DNA from: Sphingobacteriaceae bacterium
Lineage (GTDB): Bacteria > Bacteroidota > Bacteroidia > Sphingobacteriales > Sphingobacteriaceae
Assembly: GCA_035306865.1 (NCBI GenBank)
Contig: DATGNG010000214.1
Coordinates: forward strand, 1-24,783
Direction of reading: 5' to 3'
Length of the DNA stretch: 24,783 bases
Shown one piece after another: positions 61-10,368 of the stretch (position 1 is the first letter of the stretch; each line of letters opens with the position of its first letter). The notes under the pieces were generated by a model. The model was given only the letters and a program-made list of their open reading frames with translations, was not told where the DNA came from and made no database searches. The position numbers were made by a program, and so were the translations under genes.

Positions 61-1539
61 ATGGAAATAAATACAACTATTCAAAGTATAGAGAAATTAG
101 TGCAGGAAGCCCAGAGCGCATTCCCGGTACTAAAGAGTAAAAACATTAAAGAACGGGCTGCGCTAATGCACTTGATTGCCGATGAAATAGAGGCATTGGG
201 TGAGGAGCTGACCAAAACGACCAGTGAAGAAACGAATCTGCCACTGGCCCGATTGCAGGGTGAACAGGCCAGAACTGTCTTTCAGTGGCGGAGTTATGCG
301 GATGGATTGGCTGCTGGAACGGCTCTTCCTGTCCGGATTGACACAGCTGCCCCTGATCGCAATCCCCCCAAACCCGATCTCCGTAAATCTTATGTGCCAT
401 TAGGTATTGTTGTGGTATTTGGGGCAAGTAATTTTCCTTACGCCTATTCAACAGCTGGAGGTGATACGGCATCAGCTATTGCGGCCGGCTGCCCGGTGAT
501 TGTCAAAGCCCATCCTGCCCATCCCCGGACATCCGCGATTATGGGGCAAGCTATTGCAAGGGGTATCCGGAAGGCCGGACTACCTTCAGGCCTGTTCGGA
601 CAGGTTTTTAGTGATGGTTTCGAAGCCGGGAATTTTTTAGTTTCCCATCCCTTGGTCAAGGCTGTTGGATTTACAGGTTCATTGACTGGCGGAAAAGCCT
701 TGTTTGACTTAGCTGCAAGACGTCAGGAACCCATTCCGGTTTTTGCTGAGATGGGTAGTGTCAATCCGGTATTTTTGCTTCCCGGGAAACTTAAGTCATC
801 AGGTGAAGAGCTGGCAGGACAATATATTGCCTCATTGACACTTGGGGTGGGGCAGTTTTGCACCAATCCTGGCGTATTGATGGTGCCGGAAAATGAATAT
901 CTTCCTGATTTTATAGGGGCACTCCGGGAAGCGTTACAAAAGATCGCTCCGGTCCCAATGCTGCATCAGGGTATAGCCAACAATTATCAGAAAAACAAGC
1001 AAAGGATAATCGGTCAGGTAGGGGTGGAGTTGATTGCTTCGGTTGCGCCCGGTGAAAAAATACAGGGAAACCCTGCGTTGGTGAAGGTCAAGGCGCAAAA
1101 TTTTCTTTCCAATGATGTTTTGGCAGAAGAAGTGTTTGGCCCATTCGGAATTCTGGTGACTTATAGTGATCAGCAGGAATTGTTGGCTGTTGCCAGGAAG
1201 TTTAATGGGCAATTGACTGCGTCTTTATTGGCAAATGATGAAGAATTGGGACAGTATGGTGAACTTGTGGATATACTGACCACAAAGTGTGGACGGATAT
1301 TGCACAATGGATTCCCTACCGGGGTCGAAGTTGCTTACGCCATGCAACATGGCGGGCCTTTTCCTGCATCCACTGATAGCCGATTTTCTGCAGTAGGGCC
1401 TGATGCTATACAGCGTTTTGCCCGACCGATTAGTTATCAGAATTGGTCCGATGAGTGGCTACCGGATGAGTTGAAAAACAGTAATCCCCTGGACATTTGG
1501 CGGACGATCAATACCGAATACACAAAAGAGCCAATTTGA
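61..1539 (+). CDS. Aldehyde dehydrogenase (NADP+), alpha-ketoglutarate semialdehyde dehydrogenase (KGSADH) type
   Basis: 492 aa. Motifs FGASNFP, GGDTASA, VKAHPAHP, GFTGS, EMGSVNP (catalytic E230), GQFCTNPG (catalytic C267), EEVFGP and HGGPFPAS are typical of the KGSADH-like ALDH subfamily. Adjacent to a hydroxyproline epimerase. Confidence 0.9.
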   Translation: MEINTTIQSIEKLVQEAQSAFPVLKSKNIKERAALMHLIADEIEALGEELTKTTSEETNLPLARLQGEQARTVFQWRSYADGLAAGTALPVRIDTAAPDRNPPKPDLRKSYVPLGIVVVFGASNFPYAYSTAGGDTASAIAAGCPVIVKAHPAHPRTSAIMGQAIARGIRKAGLPSGLFGQVFSDGFEAGNFLVSHPLVKAVGFTGSLTGGKALFDLAARRQEPIPVFAEMGSVNPVFLLPGKLKSSGEELAGQYIASLTLGVGQFCTNPGVLMVPENEYLPDFIGALREALQKIAPVPMLHQGIANNYQKNKQRIIGQVGVELIASVAPGEKIQGNPALVKVKAQNFLSNDVLAEEVFGPFGILVTYSDQQELLAVARKFNGQLTASLLANDEELGQYGELVDILTTKCGRILHNGFPTGVEVAYAMQHGGPFPASTDSRFSAVGPDAIQRFARPISYQNWSDEWLPDELKNSNPLDIWRTINTEYTKEPI

Positions 1540-1560
1540 AAACAAAATAAACTCTAAGCA

Positions 1561-2568
1561 ATGAAGAGGACATTTTCCTGTATTGACGCTCATACCTGTG
1601 GCAATCCGGTCAGACTGGTTTCTGGTGGAGGTCCCAATTTGGTTGGAAATTCCATGATGGAACGACGTTTACATTTTCTGGCAGAATACGATTGGATACG
1701 CAAGGGATTGATGTTTGAACCACGTGGCCATGATATGATGAGCGGTAGTATTTTATACCCCCCTATTGATCCGGAGAATGACGTTGGGGTGCTCTACATT
1801 GAAACCAGCGGGTGTTTACCCATGTGTGGCCATGGCACAATTGGCACGGTAACGATCGCAATCGAAGAGGGTTTGGTGATCCCTAAAATTCCGGGTAAGC
1901 TCCGGCTGGAAACTCCTGCGGGATTGGTTTTGGTAGATTACATGCAGGAGGGCAAAAAAGTCAAATCAGTAAAATTGACCAATATAAAATCTTTTCTGGA
2001 AGCAGAAGGGCTGACAGTAGAATGCCCGGATCTGGGAACCTTGACAGTGGACGTGGCTTATGGTGGTAATTTTTATGCCATCATTGATCCTCAGGAAAAT
2101 TTCAAGGGGATGGAACACTATCATGCAGATCAATTGATCGCATGGAGCAGAGTATGCCGCCAACGCCTCAATGAAAAGTATAGTTTTTTCCATCCGGAAG
2201 ATAAAAACATCAATGGACTGAGCCATATACAATGGACTGGTAAGCCTTTGGACCCTTCTTCAACAGCACGGAATGCGGTGTTTTACGGAGATAAAGCAAT
2301 CGATCGTTCTCCTTGTGGAACAGGTACTTCGGCTCGTATGGCCCAGTGGCACGCGAAAGGAAAGCTCAAGCAAGGGGAGGCTTTTGTCCATGAGAGTATC
2401 ATTGGGTCAAAATTCACAGGTAAGGTGGAACAGGTAGTTGAAAACGCTTTTGGCGATGGACGCCCGGCCATTATACCCAGTATTGAAGGTTGGGCAATGA
2501 TCACAGGTTATAATACTATTTTTATTGATGATGACGATCCGTATGCACATGGATTCCAAGTATTGTGA
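1561..2568 (+). CDS. 4-hydroxyproline 2-epimerase (proline racemase family)
   Basis: 335 aa. Motifs IDAHTCGNPVR, EPRGHDMMSG, GCLPMCGHG (C89), VDVAYGGNFY and DRSPCGTGT (C252). The Cys/Cys pair indicates an epimerase/racemase rather than a Cys/Thr dehydratase. Confidence 0.9.
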   Translation: MKRTFSCIDAHTCGNPVRLVSGGGPNLVGNSMMERRLHFLAEYDWIRKGLMFEPRGHDMMSGSILYPPIDPENDVGVLYIETSGCLPMCGHGTIGTVTIAIEEGLVIPKIPGKLRLETPAGLVLVDYMQEGKKVKSVKLTNIKSFLEAEGLTVECPDLGTLTVDVAYGGNFYAIIDPQENFKGMEHYHADQLIAWSRVCRQRLNEKYSFFHPEDKNINGLSHIQWTGKPLDPSSTARNAVFYGDKAIDRSPCGTGTSARMAQWHAKGKLKQGEAFVHESIIGSKFTGKVEQVVENAFGDGRPAIIPSIEGWAMITGYNTIFIDDDDPYAHGFQVL

Positions 2569-3814
2569 TAAGGTATTGGTGATCGGAGGCGGCATTGCTG
2601 GTTTGGCCTCTGCTTATTACCTTGCAAAAAGCGGGCGGCAAGTGACCCTAATAGAGAGAGGAGACTTGACGGATGGTTGTTCCTTTGGCAATGCGGGCAT
2701 GATTGTCCCCAGCCATTTTACCCCCATGGCAGCTCCGGGAATTGTCTCGCAGGGTATCAAATGGATGTTTGATCGAAAAAGCCCATTTTATGTCAAGCCT
2801 TCCCTCAATTGGTCACTATTGACTTGGGGAATGCGATTCCTGCAACACGCCAATGAAAAGCATGTGCTCCGAGCGTCTCCGGCATTAAAGGACCTGCATC
2901 TTTATAGTAGCCAGCTTTATGATCAATTGGCGACTGAATTAAGTACGGATTTCGACCTGCAACACAAGGGGATTTTGATGCTGTACAAAACAGGCAGTAC
3001 TGAAGAGGAGGAGATTCATTTGGCCAATCGTGCCAGAGATATGGGGCTGGATGTTGCCGTGCTGAACAAAGACGAGGTTCAGGCGCTCGAACCCGGTGTC
3101 AAGCTGGATGTGCTGGGTGCAGTTCATTATAAGTGTGACGGACACTTGTATCCACCTGCACTGATACAAACACTCATCTCAGAATTGAAGAAAATGGGAG
3201 TGGAGTTGCAGACGGGAGTACAGGTAGAAGGTTTTGACTTGAAAGCTGGTCGTATTGAGAAAACCTATCTGTCTGATGGAAGGCAAATTCAAGCAAATCA
3301 AATTGTGCTGACCGGTGGAGCCTGGATGGGCAATTTAGCTCGAAAGGTCAATTTATCGATACCCATCATGCCGGGGAAGGGATATTCCTTTTTGACCGAT
3401 GTTTTTGAAGGAAAAGTACAGCATCCTGCATTGCTAATGGAGGCAAGGGTGGCATTGACGCCCATGGGAGGCAAGGTTCGTATCGGAGGCACTATGGAGC
3501 TCGCTCCCATCGATCATCAGATCAATTTGAATAGAGTGGAAGGGATTGTAAAGGCGGTTGGCTCTTATTATCCTGAGTACAACTTGAATATGCCCGAAAA
3601 GAAAGACATATGGTTTGGTTTCCGGCCCTGCTCACCGGATGGATTGCCTTATCTCGGGTATTCCAGAAAGGTATCCAATTTAGTGCTGGCTGGAGGTTTG
3701 GGAATGATGGGATTGAGCCTTGGACCTGCCATAGGACAGAGTGTCGCAGATCTGATCAATGGCAAAACACTACAGGCTGATATACAAATTTTCGATCCCG
3801 AACGGTTTAATTGA
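2549..3814 (+). CDS. FAD-dependent D-amino acid dehydrogenase (DadA/DAO family), probable cis-4-hydroxy-D-proline dehydrogenase
   Basis: N-terminal VIGGGIAG Rossmann motif, SFGNAG, KGYS, GGTME, GFRPCSPDGLPYLG, GLSLGP and C-terminal FDPERF. Start moved from the track's TTG 2525 to ATG 2549 (MDSKYCDKVLV), which overlaps the epimerase end by 20 nt. Substrate inferred from context. Confidence 0.8.
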   Translation: MDSKYCDKVLVIGGGIAGLASAYYLAKSGRQVTLIERGDLTDGCSFGNAGMIVPSHFTPMAAPGIVSQGIKWMFDRKSPFYVKPSLNWSLLTWGMRFLQHANEKHVLRASPALKDLHLYSSQLYDQLATELSTDFDLQHKGILMLYKTGSTEEEEIHLANRARDMGLDVAVLNKDEVQALEPGVKLDVLGAVHYKCDGHLYPPALIQTLISELKKMGVELQTGVQVEGFDLKAGRIEKTYLSDGRQIQANQIVLTGGAWMGNLARKVNLSIPIMPGKGYSFLTDVFEGKVQHPALLMEARVALTPMGGKVRIGGTMELAPIDHQINLNRVEGIVKAVGSYYPEYNLNMPEKKDIWFGFRPCSPDGLPYLGYSRKVSNLVLAGGLGMMGLSLGPAIGQSVADLINGKTLQADIQIFDPERFN

Positions 3815-3844
3815 TTGTTTTACGGAATACTTTAATTGTTTGAT

Positions 3845-4783
3845 ATGTTGTTTATTGATGATGATAGGATCAGAGAAGCGTTGGATTACCCCCAATTGAT
3901 AGAGGCGCTCAGAAAAATATTTCTTTCTGAATACACTATGAAACTGCGTCACCATCATTTTTATCAAAGTGAATCTGGTTCTGAGAATGCTTTGATTCTG
4001 ATGCCCGTTTGGAATAAAGAGTTTATGGGCATCAAGCAAGTGATTGTTGCTCCGGACAACCACAAGATAGGATTGCCTTCAATTTCTGCTCAATATACAT
4101 TGTTGGACACACAAACTGGAAGGGTTTTGGCCCTAATGAATGCTACTGAGCTTACCGCAAGACGTACTGCCTGCACTTCTGCACTTGCTGCTTCTTATTT
4201 AGCACCGTTAGACGCCAGTGATCTGTTGGTAGTAGGTGGAGGAAGTGTGGCAAAGCATTTGGTTCAAGCACACAATGTTGTGAGAAACTATACGAATATC
4301 AAAGTATGGATGCGAAATCCTGATAAGAAGCAAGTTTTTGTAAAGGAATTGCAGGATCAAGGATATTCGGTTGAGGCAGCTGAAGATTTGGAGGTTGCGG
4401 TCAAACAAGCGGATGTAATCTCCTGTGCGACCCTTTCAGCCGATCCTATCATAAAGGGAAGCTGGATCAAAAAGGGAACCCATCTCGACCTGATCGGTTC
4501 ACATAAACCAGATACCAGAGAGGTAGATGATGAAGCCATAAGCAGGGCAGCGGTATTTGTTGACTCTCGGATGGGAGCGCTGCATGAGACAGGTGAATTG
4601 GCCATCCCGATCGCTTCAGGATTGCTGAAAGAAGAAGATGTGCTGGCCGATATTACTCAATTGGTGAGCGGGCAGCACCCGGGCAGGAGAAATAAAGAGG
4701 AAATTACATTATTTAAGTCTGCGGGTCTCGCGGTTGAAGATTTGGCAGCGGCACTTTTGGTCTATCAAACCGTAGTGGGATAA
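3845..4783 (+). CDS. Ornithine cyclodeaminase / mu-crystallin family protein (candidate Delta1-pyrroline-2-carboxylate / imine reductase)
   Basis: Motifs LILMPVW, ELTARRTACTSALA, VGGGSVA, ADVISCAT, HLDLIGS and ITLFKSAGLAVEDLAAA. ATG 3845 preferred over the track's TTG 3836, giving 312 aa. Confidence 0.85.
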   Translation: MLFIDDDRIREALDYPQLIEALRKIFLSEYTMKLRHHHFYQSESGSENALILMPVWNKEFMGIKQVIVAPDNHKIGLPSISAQYTLLDTQTGRVLALMNATELTARRTACTSALAASYLAPLDASDLLVVGGGSVAKHLVQAHNVVRNYTNIKVWMRNPDKKQVFVKELQDQGYSVEAAEDLEVAVKQADVISCATLSADPIIKGSWIKKGTHLDLIGSHKPDTREVDDEAISRAAVFVDSRMGALHETGELAIPIASGLLKEEDVLADITQLVSGQHPGRRNKEEITLFKSAGLAVEDLAAALLVYQTVVG

Positions 4784-4875
4784 GAAATACAGACTGCAAC
4801 GATATTTTTACTGTAAAATGGGTTATTTGGGATACGGAAGCACGGCTCTGCTAAGGTTCTATGTTGATTATAACT

Positions 4876-4883
4876 TATATTTG
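4876..4883 (+). promoter_or_regulatory. Bacteroidota housekeeping promoter -7 element upstream of the DUF885-APC-S9 genes
   Basis: TATATTTG matches TAnnTTTG, 68 nt before ATG 4952. No clean -33 TTTG at the canonical spacing. Confidence 0.5.
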
Positions 4884-4951
4884 CTTTTATCGAAGGGTTC
4901 GCACGGACTATTCGAAATGAATATTAAAAAACCATTTATATACCAATCAAT

Positions 4952-6724
4952 ATGATGAAAAAAATTATTTCAATTTTTTTAAGCTGTGGATTCTTTGCGG
5001 TAACCACCAATGCACAGCCCTCTGCCAATATTGACAAGCTTTATGAACAAGCCAGTGAAGTTTCCGGTTTGGTCGTAAAATATGCCAATGACGCAGGCGC
5101 AATCCAATATTTTTATGGCCCCATGACTGCTGGCTTTGGTGGCCGTGGTGGGGGAGGAGTAAATTCGCCCGAACAACTGGAGCGCTTGATGAAGCTAAAT
5201 CAATCGTATCTGGATGAGTTGAAAAAGTTAGATTTCAATAGTTACAGTATCCATGGAAAAGTGGATTATGTGTTGTTGAAATCGAGGATTGAACGTCAAC
5301 AGGAAAGTTTGAAGCGTCAAAAGGAGACTTATTCCAAGATTGCAGGCTATTTACCATTTGCACAAACTATCTATGATTTTGAAAAGAATCGTAGGAGAGG
5401 GACCTCTGTGGATGGGGAACAGATTGCTGGTGAGTTGCATCAGGCTACGCTCGAATTGCAACAGATCAGTGGAAAACTGAAAGCTGAAAAAGAGATTGAT
5501 TCTGAACTTGCCGATTATCTGGATGCGACTGTGCGGGATTTGAGAAATAGGCTTCAAAGCGCTTTCAATTTTTATAATGGTTATGAGCCCCTGTTTACGT
5601 GGTGGGTACCGGAGCCCTTTAAGGCACTGGACAAGGAATTAGAAAATTATGTAACCCTGGTGCGTTCCAAAAGTGATGCAAAAGTGTTTGACGATGGTTC
5701 GAACATAGGAGGGAAACCAATTGGCAGGGAGGAAATGACCCGGCAATTGTTGGATGAAATGATTCCATACTCACCCGATGATCTGCTGCGTTTGGCCGAA
5801 CAGGAATTTGCCTGGTGTGAGGCTGAGTTGCTAAAAGCTTCTCGGGAAATGGGTTTTGGAGATGACTGGAAAGCTGCACAAGAGCAAGTCAAGAACTCTT
5901 ACGTTGCTCCCGGAAAACAACCCGAAACCATAATAGAACTTAATCAGGCCGCTATCGACTTTATCAATGAGCGGGATTTGCTCACCATGCCTGATCTGTC
6001 ACATGAAACCTGGGGTATGGTGATGATGACCCCACAACAGCAGGAAGTAAGTCCCTTCTTTTTGGGAGGGCGTAATATTATGATCGCTTACCCCACCAAT
6101 GAGATGAGCCATGAGCGCAAGCTGATGAGTATGCGTGGTAATAACCCCTTTTTCTCCAGAGGAATAGTGCAGCACGAATTGGTACCGGGCCATCACTTAC
6201 AATATTTTATGAATAGCCGTTACAAAGCTTATAGGGGAGAAAATTTCAGAACTCCTTTTTGGACAGAAGGATGGACCTTGTACTGGGAATTGTTGTTGTA
6301 CGATTTGGGCTTCCCCAAAACTCCGGAAGAGCGTATCGGTATGTTGTTCTGGCGCATGCATCGTTGTGCACGGATCACGTTTTCTATCAAATACCACCTC
6401 GGTGAATGGACTCCTCAGCAATGTATTGACTATCTGGTAGATCGGGTCGGCCACGAACCGTCCACTGCACATGGTGAAGTGAAGCGTTCCTTTGAAGGAA
6501 ATTATGGCCCGCTTTATCAGTTGGCTTATCTGGTGGGCGGATTGCAGGTTTGGAGCCTCAAACATGAATTGGTGGACAGTGGACGCATGCCGATCAAGGA
6601 ATTCCACGATCGCTTTATGAAGGAAAACTACATGCCGATTGAGATGTTGCGTGCCACACTGACCAATCAGAATATCAGTCGGGACTTCAAGAGCAGCTGG
6701 AAGTTTTATGACTTCAAAAACTAG
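4952..6724 (+). CDS. DUF885 family exported protein, putative zinc metallopeptidase
   Basis: 590 aa. Sec-type signal peptide (MKKIISIFLSCGFFAVTTNA/Q), DUF885 hallmarks HELVPGHHLQ (H408-H415) and downstream WTEGW (E439), plus LFWRMHRCAR and EVKRS..YQLAY. Confidence 0.85.
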   Translation: MMKKIISIFLSCGFFAVTTNAQPSANIDKLYEQASEVSGLVVKYANDAGAIQYFYGPMTAGFGGRGGGGVNSPEQLERLMKLNQSYLDELKKLDFNSYSIHGKVDYVLLKSRIERQQESLKRQKETYSKIAGYLPFAQTIYDFEKNRRRGTSVDGEQIAGELHQATLELQQISGKLKAEKEIDSELADYLDATVRDLRNRLQSAFNFYNGYEPLFTWWVPEPFKALDKELENYVTLVRSKSDAKVFDDGSNIGGKPIGREEMTRQLLDEMIPYSPDDLLRLAEQEFAWCEAELLKASREMGFGDDWKAAQEQVKNSYVAPGKQPETIIELNQAAIDFINERDLLTMPDLSHETWGMVMMTPQQQEVSPFFLGGRNIMIAYPTNEMSHERKLMSMRGNNPFFSRGIVQHELVPGHHLQYFMNSRYKAYRGENFRTPFWTEGWTLYWELLLYDLGFPKTPEERIGMLFWRMHRCARITFSIKYHLGEWTPQQCIDYLVDRVGHEPSTAHGEVKRSFEGNYGPLYQLAYLVGGLQVWSLKHELVDSGRMPIKEFHDRFMKENYMPIEMLRATLTNQNISRDFKSSWKFYDFKN

Positions 6725-8111
6725 TGGGTTTAAAGCCTCGCTGACACTGACAGACGCAACGATGTTGGTGGCCGGGAGCATGATCGGCTCCGGTATTTTT
6801 ATTGTGAGCGCGGATATTGCGCGCAATACAGGAAGTGCCGGGTGGTTGATGCTCGTCTGGGCAATTACCGGATTCATGACCTTAACTGCAGCATTGAGTT
6901 ACGGAGAGCTGAGCTCTATGTTTCCCAGGGCAGGAGGGCAATATGTTTATTTGAAAGAAGCATATAACCCTTTGGTCAGTTTTGTGTTTGGCTGGACCTT
7001 CTTTACCATTATCCAAACGGCTACTATTGCCGCGGTAGGAGTGGCGTTTGCTAAGTTTACTGCCTATCTGATACCTCAACTTGATGAGGATATAATCGTA
7101 GCTGACCTTGGTTTTCTGCAAATTTCCTCAGCACAACTGGTATCTATAGCGGTTATCCTTCTTTTGACCATTGTCAATACCCGTGGGGTCAATTCTGGCA
7201 AGACAGTACAAACTTTTTTCACCTTTGTCAAAATCGCCAGTTTGCTTGGTTTGGTGCTGTTTGGGTTCTTTGCTTTTAATCCTGAAGTTTGGCAAAACAA
7301 CTGGAGTGGAGGCAATGCATGGAATCTCCGACACCTTTCTGTTGATGGTACACTTAGCGATTATACGCTGTTTGCCGCACTGGGAGCGGTTGCTGCCGGG
7401 ATGGTGGGTGCGATTTTCAGTAGTGATTCCTGGCACAGCTCTTCCTCAGTGGCTGCAGAAATCAAAAATCCAAGCCGCAATGTGGGCCTGAGCCTGGCAT
7501 TGGGAACGATAATAGTGACTGTAGTCTATTTGTTGACTAACCTTATGTACACTGGTGTAGTGTCCATGGAAGAAATGGCAGCAGCGGACAAAGACCGGGT
7601 CGCCATTACTGTTGCCCAGCAAATATTCGGTCCTGTTGGAATAACTGTGATAGCTGTTATGATAATGGTTTCGACCTTCGGTTGTAACAATGGTTTGATC
7701 ATGGCTGGTGCAAGGGTTTATTATTCCATGGCTGAGGACGGTCTGTTTTTCAAGAAGGTAGGGACGCTCAATAAATTCTCCGTACCAGCAGTAGCTCTTT
7801 GGTTGCAATGCCTTATTGCTTCGATCTGGAGCCTAAGTGGGAAATACGGGGATCTACTGGATATGATTTCTATGGTGGTCGTCATTTTCTACGTATTGGC
7901 TATTATTGGAATCTTTAAACTACGTAAGACAAGACCAGATCTGCCCCGGCCCTATAAAGCATTTGGCTATCCGGTATTGCCGTTTATTTATATACTGATG
8001 GGAACCGCCTTTTGTGTGTTGATGGTTATTTATAAACCGGATTATACTTGGCCGGGGATTGTGATTGCTTCATTGGGTATTCCGGTGTATTACCTGATCA
8101 AAAGAAAATAA
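6708..8111 (+). CDS. APC superfamily amino acid permease
   Basis: 467 aa with many hydrophobic segments. Motifs GSMIGSGIF, SYGELSSMFPRAGGQYVYL, AEIKNPSRN, GARVYYSMAEDGLFF and PRPYKAFGYP. Overlaps the DUF885 stop by 17 nt. Confidence 0.92.
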   Translation: MTSKTSGFKASLTLTDATMLVAGSMIGSGIFIVSADIARNTGSAGWLMLVWAITGFMTLTAALSYGELSSMFPRAGGQYVYLKEAYNPLVSFVFGWTFFTIIQTATIAAVGVAFAKFTAYLIPQLDEDIIVADLGFLQISSAQLVSIAVILLLTIVNTRGVNSGKTVQTFFTFVKIASLLGLVLFGFFAFNPEVWQNNWSGGNAWNLRHLSVDGTLSDYTLFAALGAVAAGMVGAIFSSDSWHSSSSVAAEIKNPSRNVGLSLALGTIIVTVVYLLTNLMYTGVVSMEEMAAADKDRVAITVAQQIFGPVGITVIAVMIMVSTFGCNNGLIMAGARVYYSMAEDGLFFKKVGTLNKFSVPAVALWLQCLIASIWSLSGKYGDLLDMISMVVVIFYVLAIIGIFKLRKTRPDLPRPYKAFGYPVLPFIYILMGTAFCVLMVIYKPDYTWPGIVIASLGIPVYYLIKRK

Positions 8112-8133
8112 GTACAGTAAAACCTCCTAAATT

Positions 8134-10368
8134 ATGAAACAGTTTATTTCTATTCTTTTTGTTGTTATTTCTCCTTTTCTGTTACTTGCGCAGGGAACTT
8201 TGACCGACTATCAACGTGCTGCGGAAATGAAAGAGAAACTGCGGCACAAGCTTTACCATGAGCCTGCCGGAATAGTGTGGGGTGCGGAAGAACATTTTTT
8301 TTACAAAACCCTAACGCCACAAGGTGAACAGTTTTATTTAGTGGATGCCAAAAATCATAATAAAAGGTTACTTTTTGATCCGGCACCTTTTGTCACGGCC
8401 CTTGCGGCCCAGTCAGGTCAGCAGGTGGATGCCAACTCCTTGCCTATCACAAACTTGAAAGTTGATCCTCAATCCATGATAATGGACTTTGTGTCTTTTG
8501 GAAAGCAGTGGCAGTATGATCCTGAAGGTAAGGTGTTGACTGAAGGAGAGGCAGTAACAAGCCGGACGGGACAACAAGGATATTGGGGCAGACGGTTTGA
8601 TGAACGGGAAGGTGATCCCATTCCCTCACCAGATGGGAAATGGAAAGTATATATCAAAAATAGCAATGTCTATGTAAGCCTTGCTAATGGAGAACAGGAA
8701 AAACAGTTGAGTTATGACGGTTCTCCCGGTGAATATTATTCGGCACGTATTTTTTGGTCTTCGGATTCGGAACATCTTGCGGTCAATCGGATTCGACCTG
8801 GAGGGCAACGTACTCTTTATCTGCTCGAATCTTCGCCTCTTGATCAGCTTCAGCCCAAATTGCATACCCGGGATTATCTGAAGCCAGGCGATGCCCTTCA
8901 GCAGAAGCAACCCCATTTATTTCATGTGGACAAGGGTTTGGTCGGCAAGATCGATGCCACACTGATCAGCAATCAGTATAATTTGACCAATCCGGTTTGG
9001 CGTGCCGATGGCCGTGAATTCACGGTGGAGTACAATCAGCGGGGACATCAGCAGTACAGTGTATTCGCATTGGATGAAACCGGTAAAACCAGAGAAGTAA
9101 TTCGCGAAACCAGCCAAACCTTTATACATTATAGTGCCAAGAACTATAGGTATGATGTGTCGGATGGAAAAGAGATTATTTGGGCATCTGAACGGGATGG
9201 ATGGAATCATTTGTATTTATATGATGGAGAGACAGGACGGGTAAAAAATCAAATCACCAGTGGCGAATGGGTTGTGCGGCGAGTAATCCATGTTGATACG
9301 GTTTCCCGAAGGATCCTTTTTGAAGGAAGCGGCCGTCATGCTGATCAGGATCCTTATTTTATCCATTATTATTCCATAGGCTTTGACGGACGTGATCTCC
9401 GGGAGCTAACCACTGAGAACGGTAACCACCGTGCTACTTTTTCACCTGATTACTCTTATTTCATTGACCAATGGTCACGCCTTGACCAACCTTCCAGGAC
9501 GGTACTTAGAAACACCTCTGATGGTCGTATCCTTATGGAATTGGAAGAAGCTGATATTAGCAATCTGCTCGCTACTGGTTGGCAGATGCCAGAGGTTTTT
9601 GCTGCCAAAGGTAGGGATGGCACAACAGATATCTGGGGTATGATCCTCCGTCCATCCAATTTCGACCCCAACAAGAGTTATCCGGTGATCGAATATATCT
9701 ATGCCGGCCCACATGATTCTTTTGTTCCCAAAAATTTTATGGCCGAATCACGAATTGGATTGTTCGAATTGGTTGAGCTTGGATTTATTGTGGTACAAAT
9801 AGATGGCATGGGAACCTCCAATCGTTCCAAAGCCTTTCATGATGTTATATATCAAAACCTGAAAGACAGCGGATTCCCAGATCGAATCCTATGGATGAAA
9901 GCGGCGGCACAAAAATACCCTTATATGGATTTGGATAGGGTGGGAATCTTTGGCAGTTCAGCCGGAGGCCAAAGCTCAGCCGGAGCCTTACTGCACCATC
10001 CCGACTTTTACAAAGTAGCGGTTTCCTCTTCGGGATGCCACGACAACCGAATGGACAAAATATGGTGGAATGAACAGTTTATGGGCTTTCCAATCGGTGA
10101 ACATTATGCTGAATCCTCCAACATCACGCATGCCCACAAATTGGAAGGTAAATTGTTATTGATCTTGGGTGAAATGGATGACAATGTCGATCCCGCCTCT
10201 ACCCTTCAACTGGTCAATGCCATTATCAAAGCCAATAAGTACGTGGATCTTTTGTTTATTCCGGGGATGGGGCACTCAATGGGCGGCGAATATGGTGAAC
10301 ACAGGCGAAGGGACTTCTTTGTCAAGCACCTTATTGGTATAGATCCACCTGAGTGGAATTTGTTTTGA
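8134..10368 (+). CDS. S9 family serine peptidase (DPP-IV-like beta-propeller plus alpha/beta hydrolase), exported
   Basis: 744 aa with signal peptide (..LLLA/Q). Motifs YIYAGP, DGMGT, nucleophile elbow GSSAGG (S609), EMDDNV (D682) and GMGH (H714). Confidence 0.92.
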   Translation: MKQFISILFVVISPFLLLAQGTLTDYQRAAEMKEKLRHKLYHEPAGIVWGAEEHFFYKTLTPQGEQFYLVDAKNHNKRLLFDPAPFVTALAAQSGQQVDANSLPITNLKVDPQSMIMDFVSFGKQWQYDPEGKVLTEGEAVTSRTGQQGYWGRRFDEREGDPIPSPDGKWKVYIKNSNVYVSLANGEQEKQLSYDGSPGEYYSARIFWSSDSEHLAVNRIRPGGQRTLYLLESSPLDQLQPKLHTRDYLKPGDALQQKQPHLFHVDKGLVGKIDATLISNQYNLTNPVWRADGREFTVEYNQRGHQQYSVFALDETGKTREVIRETSQTFIHYSAKNYRYDVSDGKEIIWASERDGWNHLYLYDGETGRVKNQITSGEWVVRRVIHVDTVSRRILFEGSGRHADQDPYFIHYYSIGFDGRDLRELTTENGNHRATFSPDYSYFIDQWSRLDQPSRTVLRNTSDGRILMELEEADISNLLATGWQMPEVFAAKGRDGTTDIWGMILRPSNFDPNKSYPVIEYIYAGPHDSFVPKNFMAESRIGLFELVELGFIVVQIDGMGTSNRSKAFHDVIYQNLKDSGFPDRILWMKAAAQKYPYMDLDRVGIFGSSAGGQSSAGALLHHPDFYKVAVSSSGCHDNRMDKIWWNEQFMGFPIGEHYAESSNITHAHKLEGKLLLILGEMDDNVDPASTLQLVNAIIKANKYVDLLFIPGMGHSMGGEYGEHRRRDFFVKHLIGIDPPEWNLF

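Follow-up and report, generated by a model that had tools for sequence, protein, structure and literature searches.

A putative exported zinc peptidase of the DUF885 family encoded beside hydroxyproline catabolism genes in Sphingobacteriaceae

The window analysed here, 24,783 nucleotides long, is an entire contig (24.8 kb) of a Parapedobacter-like Sphingobacteriaceae metagenome-assembled genome (75% complete), and at positions 4952-6724 of its forward strand it encodes a 590-residue protein of the DUF885 family, placed between genes for hydroxyproline (Hyp) catabolism and an amino-acid permease. The gene product is very probably a metal-dependent hydrolase. The reading that we favour, to which we give a probability of about 0.55, is that it acts in the periplasm as a zinc-dependent exopeptidase of short peptides and serves the use of proline (Pro) and Hyp peptides, its products being imported by the permease; zinc binding, peptidase activity, the exo mode of attack, the Pro/Hyp preference and the cargo of the permease are all parts that we infer. 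An initial annotation, made from the sequence alone, had proposed a "Pro/Hyp-specific" "carboxy- or oligopeptidase", both terms likewise deduced from context. The substrate idea has gained from synteny, from linkage that persists after rearrangement, from fusions to S9 peptidases with VHL domains and from co-occurrence, but the link is absent in many orthologues.

The protein matches the DUF885 profile (PF05960) at 148.2 bits against a gathering cut-off of 32.4, residues 71-569 aligning with positions 19-531 of the 532 in the profile. A search of 1.84 billion cluster representatives places it in a large family (4915 clusters at 50% identity, E<=1e-3), within which its own distinct subfamily comprises 358 clusters at E<=1e-30. 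Four features of the protein matter for what follows:

4952-5014, forward strand: signal peptide, residues 1-21, read from the sequence, with predicted cleavage by signal peptidase I (SPase I) between TNA and Q
5132-5158, forward strand: Gly-rich loop GFGGRGGGG, residues 61-69, a lineage-specific, variable and probably disordered insert
6173-6196, forward strand: HELVPGHH, residues 408-415, with H408 and H414 as putative zinc ligands and E409 as putative catalytic base
6260-6274, forward strand: WTEGW, residues 437-441, with E439 as putative third zinc ligand

The N-terminus is a type-I signal peptide (MMKKIISIFLSCGFFAVTTNA, followed by Q), and the signal peptides of orthologues likewise close with A-Q, which bears out the exported DUF885 protein of the initial annotation. 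A lipoprotein reading built on Cys12 was ruled out, since this Cys is not conserved and the orthologues carry A-Q sites for SPase I; the mature protein would be soluble and exported, and a lipoprotein is unlikely. Because the profile match reaches residue 569 of 590 and leaves no space for a C-terminal secretion domain, we infer that the protein remains in the periplasm. The Gly-rich loop is indeed present near the N-terminus, as first annotated, but it is not a conserved feature: it occurs only in close relatives, varies in length between strains and is modelled at a pLDDT of about 59. In a related strain, sampled by a sludge metatranscriptome, an indel lies at the edge of the loop (5159) and the signal-peptide region has lost 3 nt (at 5003). 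As a functional motif the loop was ruled out on its absence beyond close relatives, the low pLDDT and the indel.

The case for a hydrolase lies in the catalytic-looking residues. In an alignment of 59 diverse homologues taken from the search of cluster representatives (26-73% identity to the query), H408, E439, G440 and R474 occur in every sequence and E409, G413 and H414 in 58, a single sequence lacking the Glu of the motif; P412 is found in 56 and W441 in 53, and a near-invariant set follows downstream (R423, R428, R468, R471, R512, H482, Y522, Y526). Conservation of the HExxPGH/E439 motif is far above chance, and the solved members of the family carry equivalents: HEAIPGHY/VEGW (3u24), HEANPGHH/TEGW (3o0y) and HEGVPGHH/GEGW (3iuk). 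HELVPGHH, WTEGW with E439 and GFGGRGGGG all stand at the residues where they had been annotated. The spacing was mistaken, however: in place of HExx(x)H, it is H408-E409-x4-H414 (HExxPGH), so that E409 and H414 are separated by four residues. As for the choice left between H414 and H415, the latter is found in only 48 of the 59 homologues, tolerates Asn or Tyr, and is a Tyr in the crystal structure 3u24; H415 is therefore disfavoured as a zinc ligand and H414 is the likely one. E439 lies 25 residues past H414 on a helix (435-451). The label "gluzincin-like" holds in part: the His/Glu...His...Glu set is there, together with a fold like that of M32, M3 and M2 peptidases, but HExxH on one helix, which characterises gluzincins (MEROPS clan MA(E); Pfam clan Peptidase_MA), is not. 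This is not without precedent: MATCAP and DPP III have extended HExxxH motifs compatible with catalysis (PMC10499314), and a zinc-site predictor placed a catalytic-type site of two His and one Glu in another DUF885 model, a computational result (PMC12572635). What we propose, with the model in support, is a zinc hydrolase of the gluzincin type that is soluble and periplasmic and whose active-site motif, H408/E409-PG-H414, is split; E439 would be its third ligand. The cluster of Arg and Tyr residues (R423, R428, R468, R471, R474, R512, Y522, Y526) is of a kind that could bind the C-terminal carboxylate of a peptide.

A single-sequence AlphaFold prediction was unusable (pLDDT 37) and was superseded by an alignment-based AlphaFold (AF2) model of pLDDT 92.9 and pTM 0.90. 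In the DSSP assignment of this model, one helix (399-409) closes with H408 and E409, the helical run is broken at LVPG, and another helix (414-423) begins at H414; as modelled, the arrangement is that of a zincin active-site helix split in two and followed by a "glutamate helix" bearing E439. Its top matches are the three DUF885 crystal structures (VIA Z 32.1, 30.6 and 30.4 over 389-480 aligned residues; Foldseek E 2e-12 to 5e-10). Beyond them the model shows a two-lobed helical fold like that of M32, M3 and M2 peptidases, and the comparison with these families that had been suggested at the outset yields weaker VIA matches, all to gluzincins, at Z of about 8-13, values that long helical proteins can reach without homology. 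Five M32 carboxypeptidases score 10.6-13.1 over 350-374 aligned residues spanning 35-590 (BsuCP 13.1, PfuCP 11.8), PepF 13.1, Dcp 10.0 and ACE 8.6, and Foldseek ranks ACE next after the DUF885 structures (probability 0.98). These matches to M32, PepF, Dcp and ACE extend along nearly the entire chain, and the enzymes concerned act on chain ends or short peptides; MATCAP (Z 13.2) matches the catalytic half only (residues 246-590). No support came from the sequence level: the protein has no match to the M32 profile PF02074, and when the profile of the DUF885 subfamily was compared by hhalign with 20 aligned M32 sequences, a shallow set (64-80% identity, with a single sequence at 52%), no signal emerged (probability 0.14) and hence no residue-by-residue correspondence, so that the relationship to known peptidases is structural only. 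Among Swiss-Prot models, Foldseek found none with a TM above 0.2, and thus no reviewed protein of this fold. As judged from the model, the DUF885 protein would resemble M32, M3 or M2 enzymes in function without belonging to them.

What the enzyme may act on is suggested by its neighbours. Seven genes occupy 61-10368, all in one orientation, the last encoding the S9 peptidase:

61-1539, forward strand: aldehyde dehydrogenase (ALDH), from Pfam and NCBIfam matches; cytoplasmic Hyp/Pro catabolism
1561-2568, forward strand: 4-hydroxyproline epimerase (HypE), NF010578 at 594 bits (cut-off 376); cytoplasmic
2525-3814, forward strand: DAO-family D-amino-acid (D-Hyp) dehydrogenase, from Pfam and NCBIfam matches; cytoplasmic
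3836-4783, forward strand: Delta1-pyrroline-2-carboxylate reductase (OCD family), NF004793 at 398 bits (cut-off 322); cytoplasmic
4952-6724, forward strand: DUF885 protein, putative exported zinc peptidase, 590 residues, from PF05960 (148.2 bits), the model and its fold matches
6708-8111, forward strand: APC-family amino-acid permease, 467 residues, PF13520 at 215 bits
8134-10368, forward strand: exported S9 peptidase (DPPIV_N and Peptidase_S9), 744 residues with a signal peptide, from Pfam and the match to 2d5l

Signal peptides are found on the DUF885 and S9 proteins and on none of the four catabolic enzymes. The upstream genes make up the bacterial 4-Hyp pathway once a DHDPS-type deaminase is counted, which lies on another contig of the same genome (C28), at its extreme end (3641-4549), and is 81% identical to the DHDPS immediately upstream of ALDH in the closest relative; it is a probable Pyr4H2C deaminase gene, and C28 probably adjoins the 5' end of the window and completes the pathway. 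The permease gene begins with an ATG at 6708 and shares 17 nt with the end of DUF885 (stop at 6724), as annotated; that the orthologous permeases can be aligned from their first residue onward at 39 of 70 loci makes this start a credible one. Contigs of the sludge metatranscriptome, 90-99% identical to the window, fall on the permease, S9, ALDH and the reductase and at either end of DUF885, but none reaches 31 nt into both genes at a junction (the contig at the DUF885/permease junction has merely 29 nt on the DUF885 side); they are a weak hint of expression, DNA carry-over being possible, and were not counted as proof of co-transcription.

This association is conserved across the family. In a survey of 80 species loci from Parapedobacter, Sphingobacterium and Mucilaginibacter, the permease immediately follows DUF885 in 70 (median projected gap about 20 nt), the S9 gene comes next in most, and ALDH-HypE-DAO stand upstream in about 60; some loci retain only DUF885, permease and S9, and this trio is therefore the core. 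A complete Mucilaginibacter genome (L046 565-21388) has the locus reshuffled yet together: a SusC/SusD importer, DHDPS, HypE, DAO, an AraC regulator, DUF885 and the permease are followed by an alpha-galactosidase (Melibiase_2 with a He_PIG domain) and then by ALDH, an M24 Xaa-Pro aminopeptidase and S9, a content that would fit the use of plant hydroxyproline-rich glycoproteins, for example galactosylated extensin peptides. In a tree of 123 orthologue rows, 90 belong to the Sphingobacteriaceae clade, and 88 of these have links to Hyp genes, to peptidase-permease genes or to both (66 Hyp-linked, 22 peptidase/permease-linked, 2 uninformative); the 33 rows of the sister clade comprise 9 Hyp-linked, in at least four separate places, 2 peptidase/permease-linked and 22 uninformative ones, and for the orthologue group as a whole neither linkage to Hyp or peptidase genes nor co-occurrence holds.

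Beyond the family, an orthologue occurs in 15 of 150 sampled Bacteroidota genomes. Four of the 15 fetched loci lie within 10 kb of Hyp genes, in three families and three gene orders, DUF885 being embedded between DAO and HypE in one of them. In one Bacteroidota genome (L099 8319-10969) the orthologue and a proline dehydrogenase gene share 1 nt, and another sampled orthologue adjoins an M1 peptidase. Genes of the Pro_racemase family are present in 9 of the 15 genomes with an orthologue against 19 of the 135 without (odds ratio 9, Fisher p 2e-4), a statistic that is overstated, the sampled genomes being related. Among metagenome loci at 43-48% identity, a Pro_racemase paralogue lies nearby in five, as the next gene downstream in three of them, and three loci adjoin an M24 aminopeptidase P; the short contigs of distant representatives gave uninformative neighbours.

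A further line of evidence comes from fusions. Proteins 40-47% identical to the query are joined to DPPIV_N and S9 modules in both orders, S9-DUF885 and DUF885-S9, and one relative to an M14 carboxypeptidase; two of the fusions were confirmed as unbroken open reading frames on contigs, one of these in two assemblies. The VHL beta domain, the fold that recognises hydroxyproline in HIF-1alpha, exceeds the Pfam cut-off of 21 in two fusions (29.6 and 32.0 bits) and matches below threshold in two more; in bacterial S9-DUF885 fusions these matches precede the DPPIV_N module (P0154, P0206, residues about 120-177; P0144, P0150). No VHL domain was detected in the S9 protein of the window, whose closest solved relative is PDB 2d5l/2eep (E 4e-59), the former presumably the prolyl tripeptidyl peptidase of Porphyromonas gingivalis. 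A hydroxyproline-recognition fold in bacterial exopeptidases is worth a separate study.

Taken together, the following route may be proposed. Oligopeptides rich in Pro/Hyp, fragments of gelatin, collagen or plant hydroxyproline-rich glycoproteins, would enter the periplasm, where the exported S9 enzyme, of the prolyl tri- or dipeptidyl peptidase type, would cut off X-(X)-Pro/Hyp units; DUF885, as a short-peptide or C-terminal exopeptidase, would complete the breakdown to free amino acids including Hyp and Pro; the APC permease, putatively co-transcribed, would take these in, and the route of epimerase, D-Hyp dehydrogenase, deaminase and aldehyde dehydrogenase would consume the imported Hyp and Pro. 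Since the two exported peptidases would act in the periplasm, the permease is one for amino acids and not for peptides, and catabolism is cytoplasmic, a periplasmic step to free amino acids is needed, and DUF885 is the obvious candidate because of its fold, like that of C-terminal exopeptidases, its Arg/Tyr cluster, its coupling to the permease and its fusion to S9. Read in this way, the sequence evidence suggests that DUF885 aids soil and compost bacteria in freeing Pro and Hyp from collagen-like or plant-wall peptides. More tentatively, and at well below even odds, the subfamily could be the missing periplasmic imido-peptidase, which would release Hyp from prolidase-resistant X-Hyp peptides (Pro-Hyp, Gly-Pro-Hyp) at the split HExxPGH...E zinc site and form the second half of a two-enzyme machine with a DPP-IV-type peptidase that would recognise Hyp through its VHL domain, the pair being fused in some bacteria.

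Several points weigh against the periplasmic Pro/Hyp exopeptidase, beside the limits given above for the fold scores, the M32 profile comparison and the co-occurrence figures. To our knowledge M32 enzymes do not release C-terminal Pro, so that the fold gives no support for a Pro/Hyp preference. Six of the 15 orthologue-bearing genomes have no Pro_racemase-family gene; most metagenome loci at 43-48% identity stand beside ThrRS, IF3 or a protein kinase, which is functionally uninformative, and the 22 uninformative rows of the sister clade lie beside ThrRS, IF3, LeuRS or kinases. The literature searched contains no substrate, activity or functional study for DUF885, and neither there nor among Swiss-Prot fold matches is there a characterised member, in agreement with the initial annotation. 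Given the unlinked orthologues and the genomes free of Pro_racemase, a broader role is possible, and the main rival, a doubtful one in our view, is a periplasmic oligopeptidase or carboxypeptidase of broad specificity that would trim whatever peptide is imported, the Hyp locus of Sphingobacteriaceae being a general peptide-feeding operon. It would explain why orthologues at 44-50% identity are mostly stand-alone with housekeeping neighbours, and why, in four of five genomes of flavobacterial type, DUF885 stands beside LeuRS and neither an epimerase nor any other Pro_racemase-family gene is present; the nearest characterised folds, those of M32, PepF and Dcp, also belong to enzymes of broad specificity. 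It does not readily account for fusions to proline-specific S9B peptidases, some of them with VHL, and it sits poorly with a Hyp-gene linkage that recurs in varied gene orders, with the orthologue that overlaps proline dehydrogenase and with the roughly nine-fold enrichment of Pro_racemase.

A zinc amidohydrolase acting on a non-standard amide, and not an ordinary peptidase, is improbable. Its substrate might be a glycosylated Hyp peptide from plant hydroxyproline-rich glycoproteins, a Pro/Hyp compound with an N-acyl or other modification, or a different small amide; the alpha-galactosidase and SusC/SusD of the Mucilaginibacter locus would suit this reading, but the tightest partners are a peptidase and an amino-acid permease, the fusion partners are exopeptidases (S9, M14), and the window holds no glycosidase. 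Least probable is a non-catalytic periplasmic binding protein or chaperone passing peptides or amino acids to the permease or S9, in keeping with the silence of the literature on an activity and with three structural-genomics entries annotated just as lipoprotein or unknown, since H408, E409, H414 and E439 vary little or not at all among the 59 diverse sequences and APC permeases work, as far as we know, without binding proteins.

Some further observations concern the locus itself. The sole long intergenic gap (4784-4951) lies directly upstream of DUF885 and contains a candidate promoter box:

4876-4883, forward strand: TATATTTG, a match to TAnnTTTG found by pattern search, 68 nt upstream of the DUF885 ATG

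TAnnTTTG is the consensus of the Bacteroidota -7 promoter box; a scan for sigma-70 promoters and terminators, a model unsuited to Bacteroidota, stayed at background level. The TTG start listed for the DAO gene (2525) overlaps the epimerase by 44 nt; since the Rossmann motif does not begin until about residue 20 and the TTG is followed by several Met codons, the true start probably lies a few codons further 3'. Although the 4-Hyp route can do without it, the OCD reductase accompanies the locus: it precedes DUF885 in the window and in some loci of Parapedobacter type, and follows S9 in several species of Sphingobacterium. Its presence suggests that 3-Hyp or D-Pro is handled too. On one metagenome contig (L105 683-4300) the interval from the OCD gene to the permease holds DUF885 twice, as a tandem pair whose members are 69% and 68% identical to the query. 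Two metagenome-assembled genomes labelled 'uncultured Citrobacter sp.' (L013) and 'uncultured Lacihabitans sp.' (L014) have a Sphingobacteriaceae-type locus nested inside that clade on the tree; the labels are probably binning or labelling errors. Genomes of the window's genus (G151-G154) are small: they range from 1.5 to 2.3 Mb, one of 2.2 Mb being 98% complete, whereas those of other genera of the family range from 1.8 to 5.7 Mb and mostly lie at 3.6-5.7 Mb. The Hyp-peptide locus is kept within this reduced genome.

That DUF885 proteins are probable metallopeptidases is not new. The deposit title of 3IUK, as we take it, notes an M32-like fold. Pfam places the family in the Peptidase_MA clan (PMC12572635), a spider-venom study reports M32-like fold similarity by FFAS (PMC7682650), and a study of proline-racemase-superfamily neighbourhoods mentions peptidase neighbours in passing, without DUF885 in its main text (PMC4113996). 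The Pro/Hyp link, the DPP-IV/VHL fusions and the HExxPGH...E set appear to be undescribed in the literature searched. With a substrate class, a set of residues to mutate and a partner enzyme, DUF885 becomes an ordinary bench project. If the proposal is true, it would reveal a route by which Bacteroidota of soil, compost and gut get free Hyp from collagen, gelatin or plant-wall glycoproteins, and a variant of the zincin site in which five residues (E409 plus four) separate the two histidines; if X-Hyp cleavage is true, it would be the first activity for a large family that extends to bacteria, amoebae and the venoms of arachnids and snails, and X-Hyp-cleaving enzymes are of practical interest in collagen-peptide processing.

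Among known systems, the closest are the DUF885 structures of Shewanella oneidensis (3U24), Colwellia psychrerythraea (3O0Y) and Arthrobacter aurescens (3IUK), for which the literature searched holds no functional paper: they share Pfam family, HExxPGH...EGW and fold with the query, and for at least two the annotation is that of an exported protein or a lipoprotein, but identity is only 13-18% and the query belongs to a distinct subfamily. The M32 carboxypeptidases (Taq/Pfu/BsuCP type; 3HQ2, 1K9X, 5E3X, 5GIV, 3DWC) resemble the query in their two-lobed all-helical fold, and their third-ligand Glu comes 26 residues after the second His in their alignment, against 25 for the putative ligand E439; they are cytoplasmic and carry a canonical HExxH on one helix, whereas the query is exported and spreads HE-x4-H over a Pro-Gly break. 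The best match outside DUF885 to the catalytic half is the tubulin carboxypeptidase MATCAP/TMCP1 (KIAA0895L; 7Z5G), a gluzincin that combines an extended HExxxH with carboxypeptidase activity (PMC10499314); unlike the query, MATCAP is eukaryotic and cytoplasmic, acts on tubulin tails, lacks the N-terminal helical lobe and has a motif one residue shorter. M3 and M2 peptidases (PepF 2H1J, Dcp 1Y79, neurolysin 4FXY, ACE 3NXQ/4C2O) share the neurolysin-like architecture (Z 7.8-13.1) but have a canonical HExxH and no sequence-level similarity. In M3 and M2 peptidases, a deep cleft limits substrates to short peptides. Finally, the pathway encoded upstream of DUF885 is that of the trans-4-hydroxy-L-proline clusters lhp of Pseudomonas and hyp of Sinorhizobium; those clusters import free Hyp through ABC systems, whereas the window joins the pathway to two exported peptidases and an APC permease.

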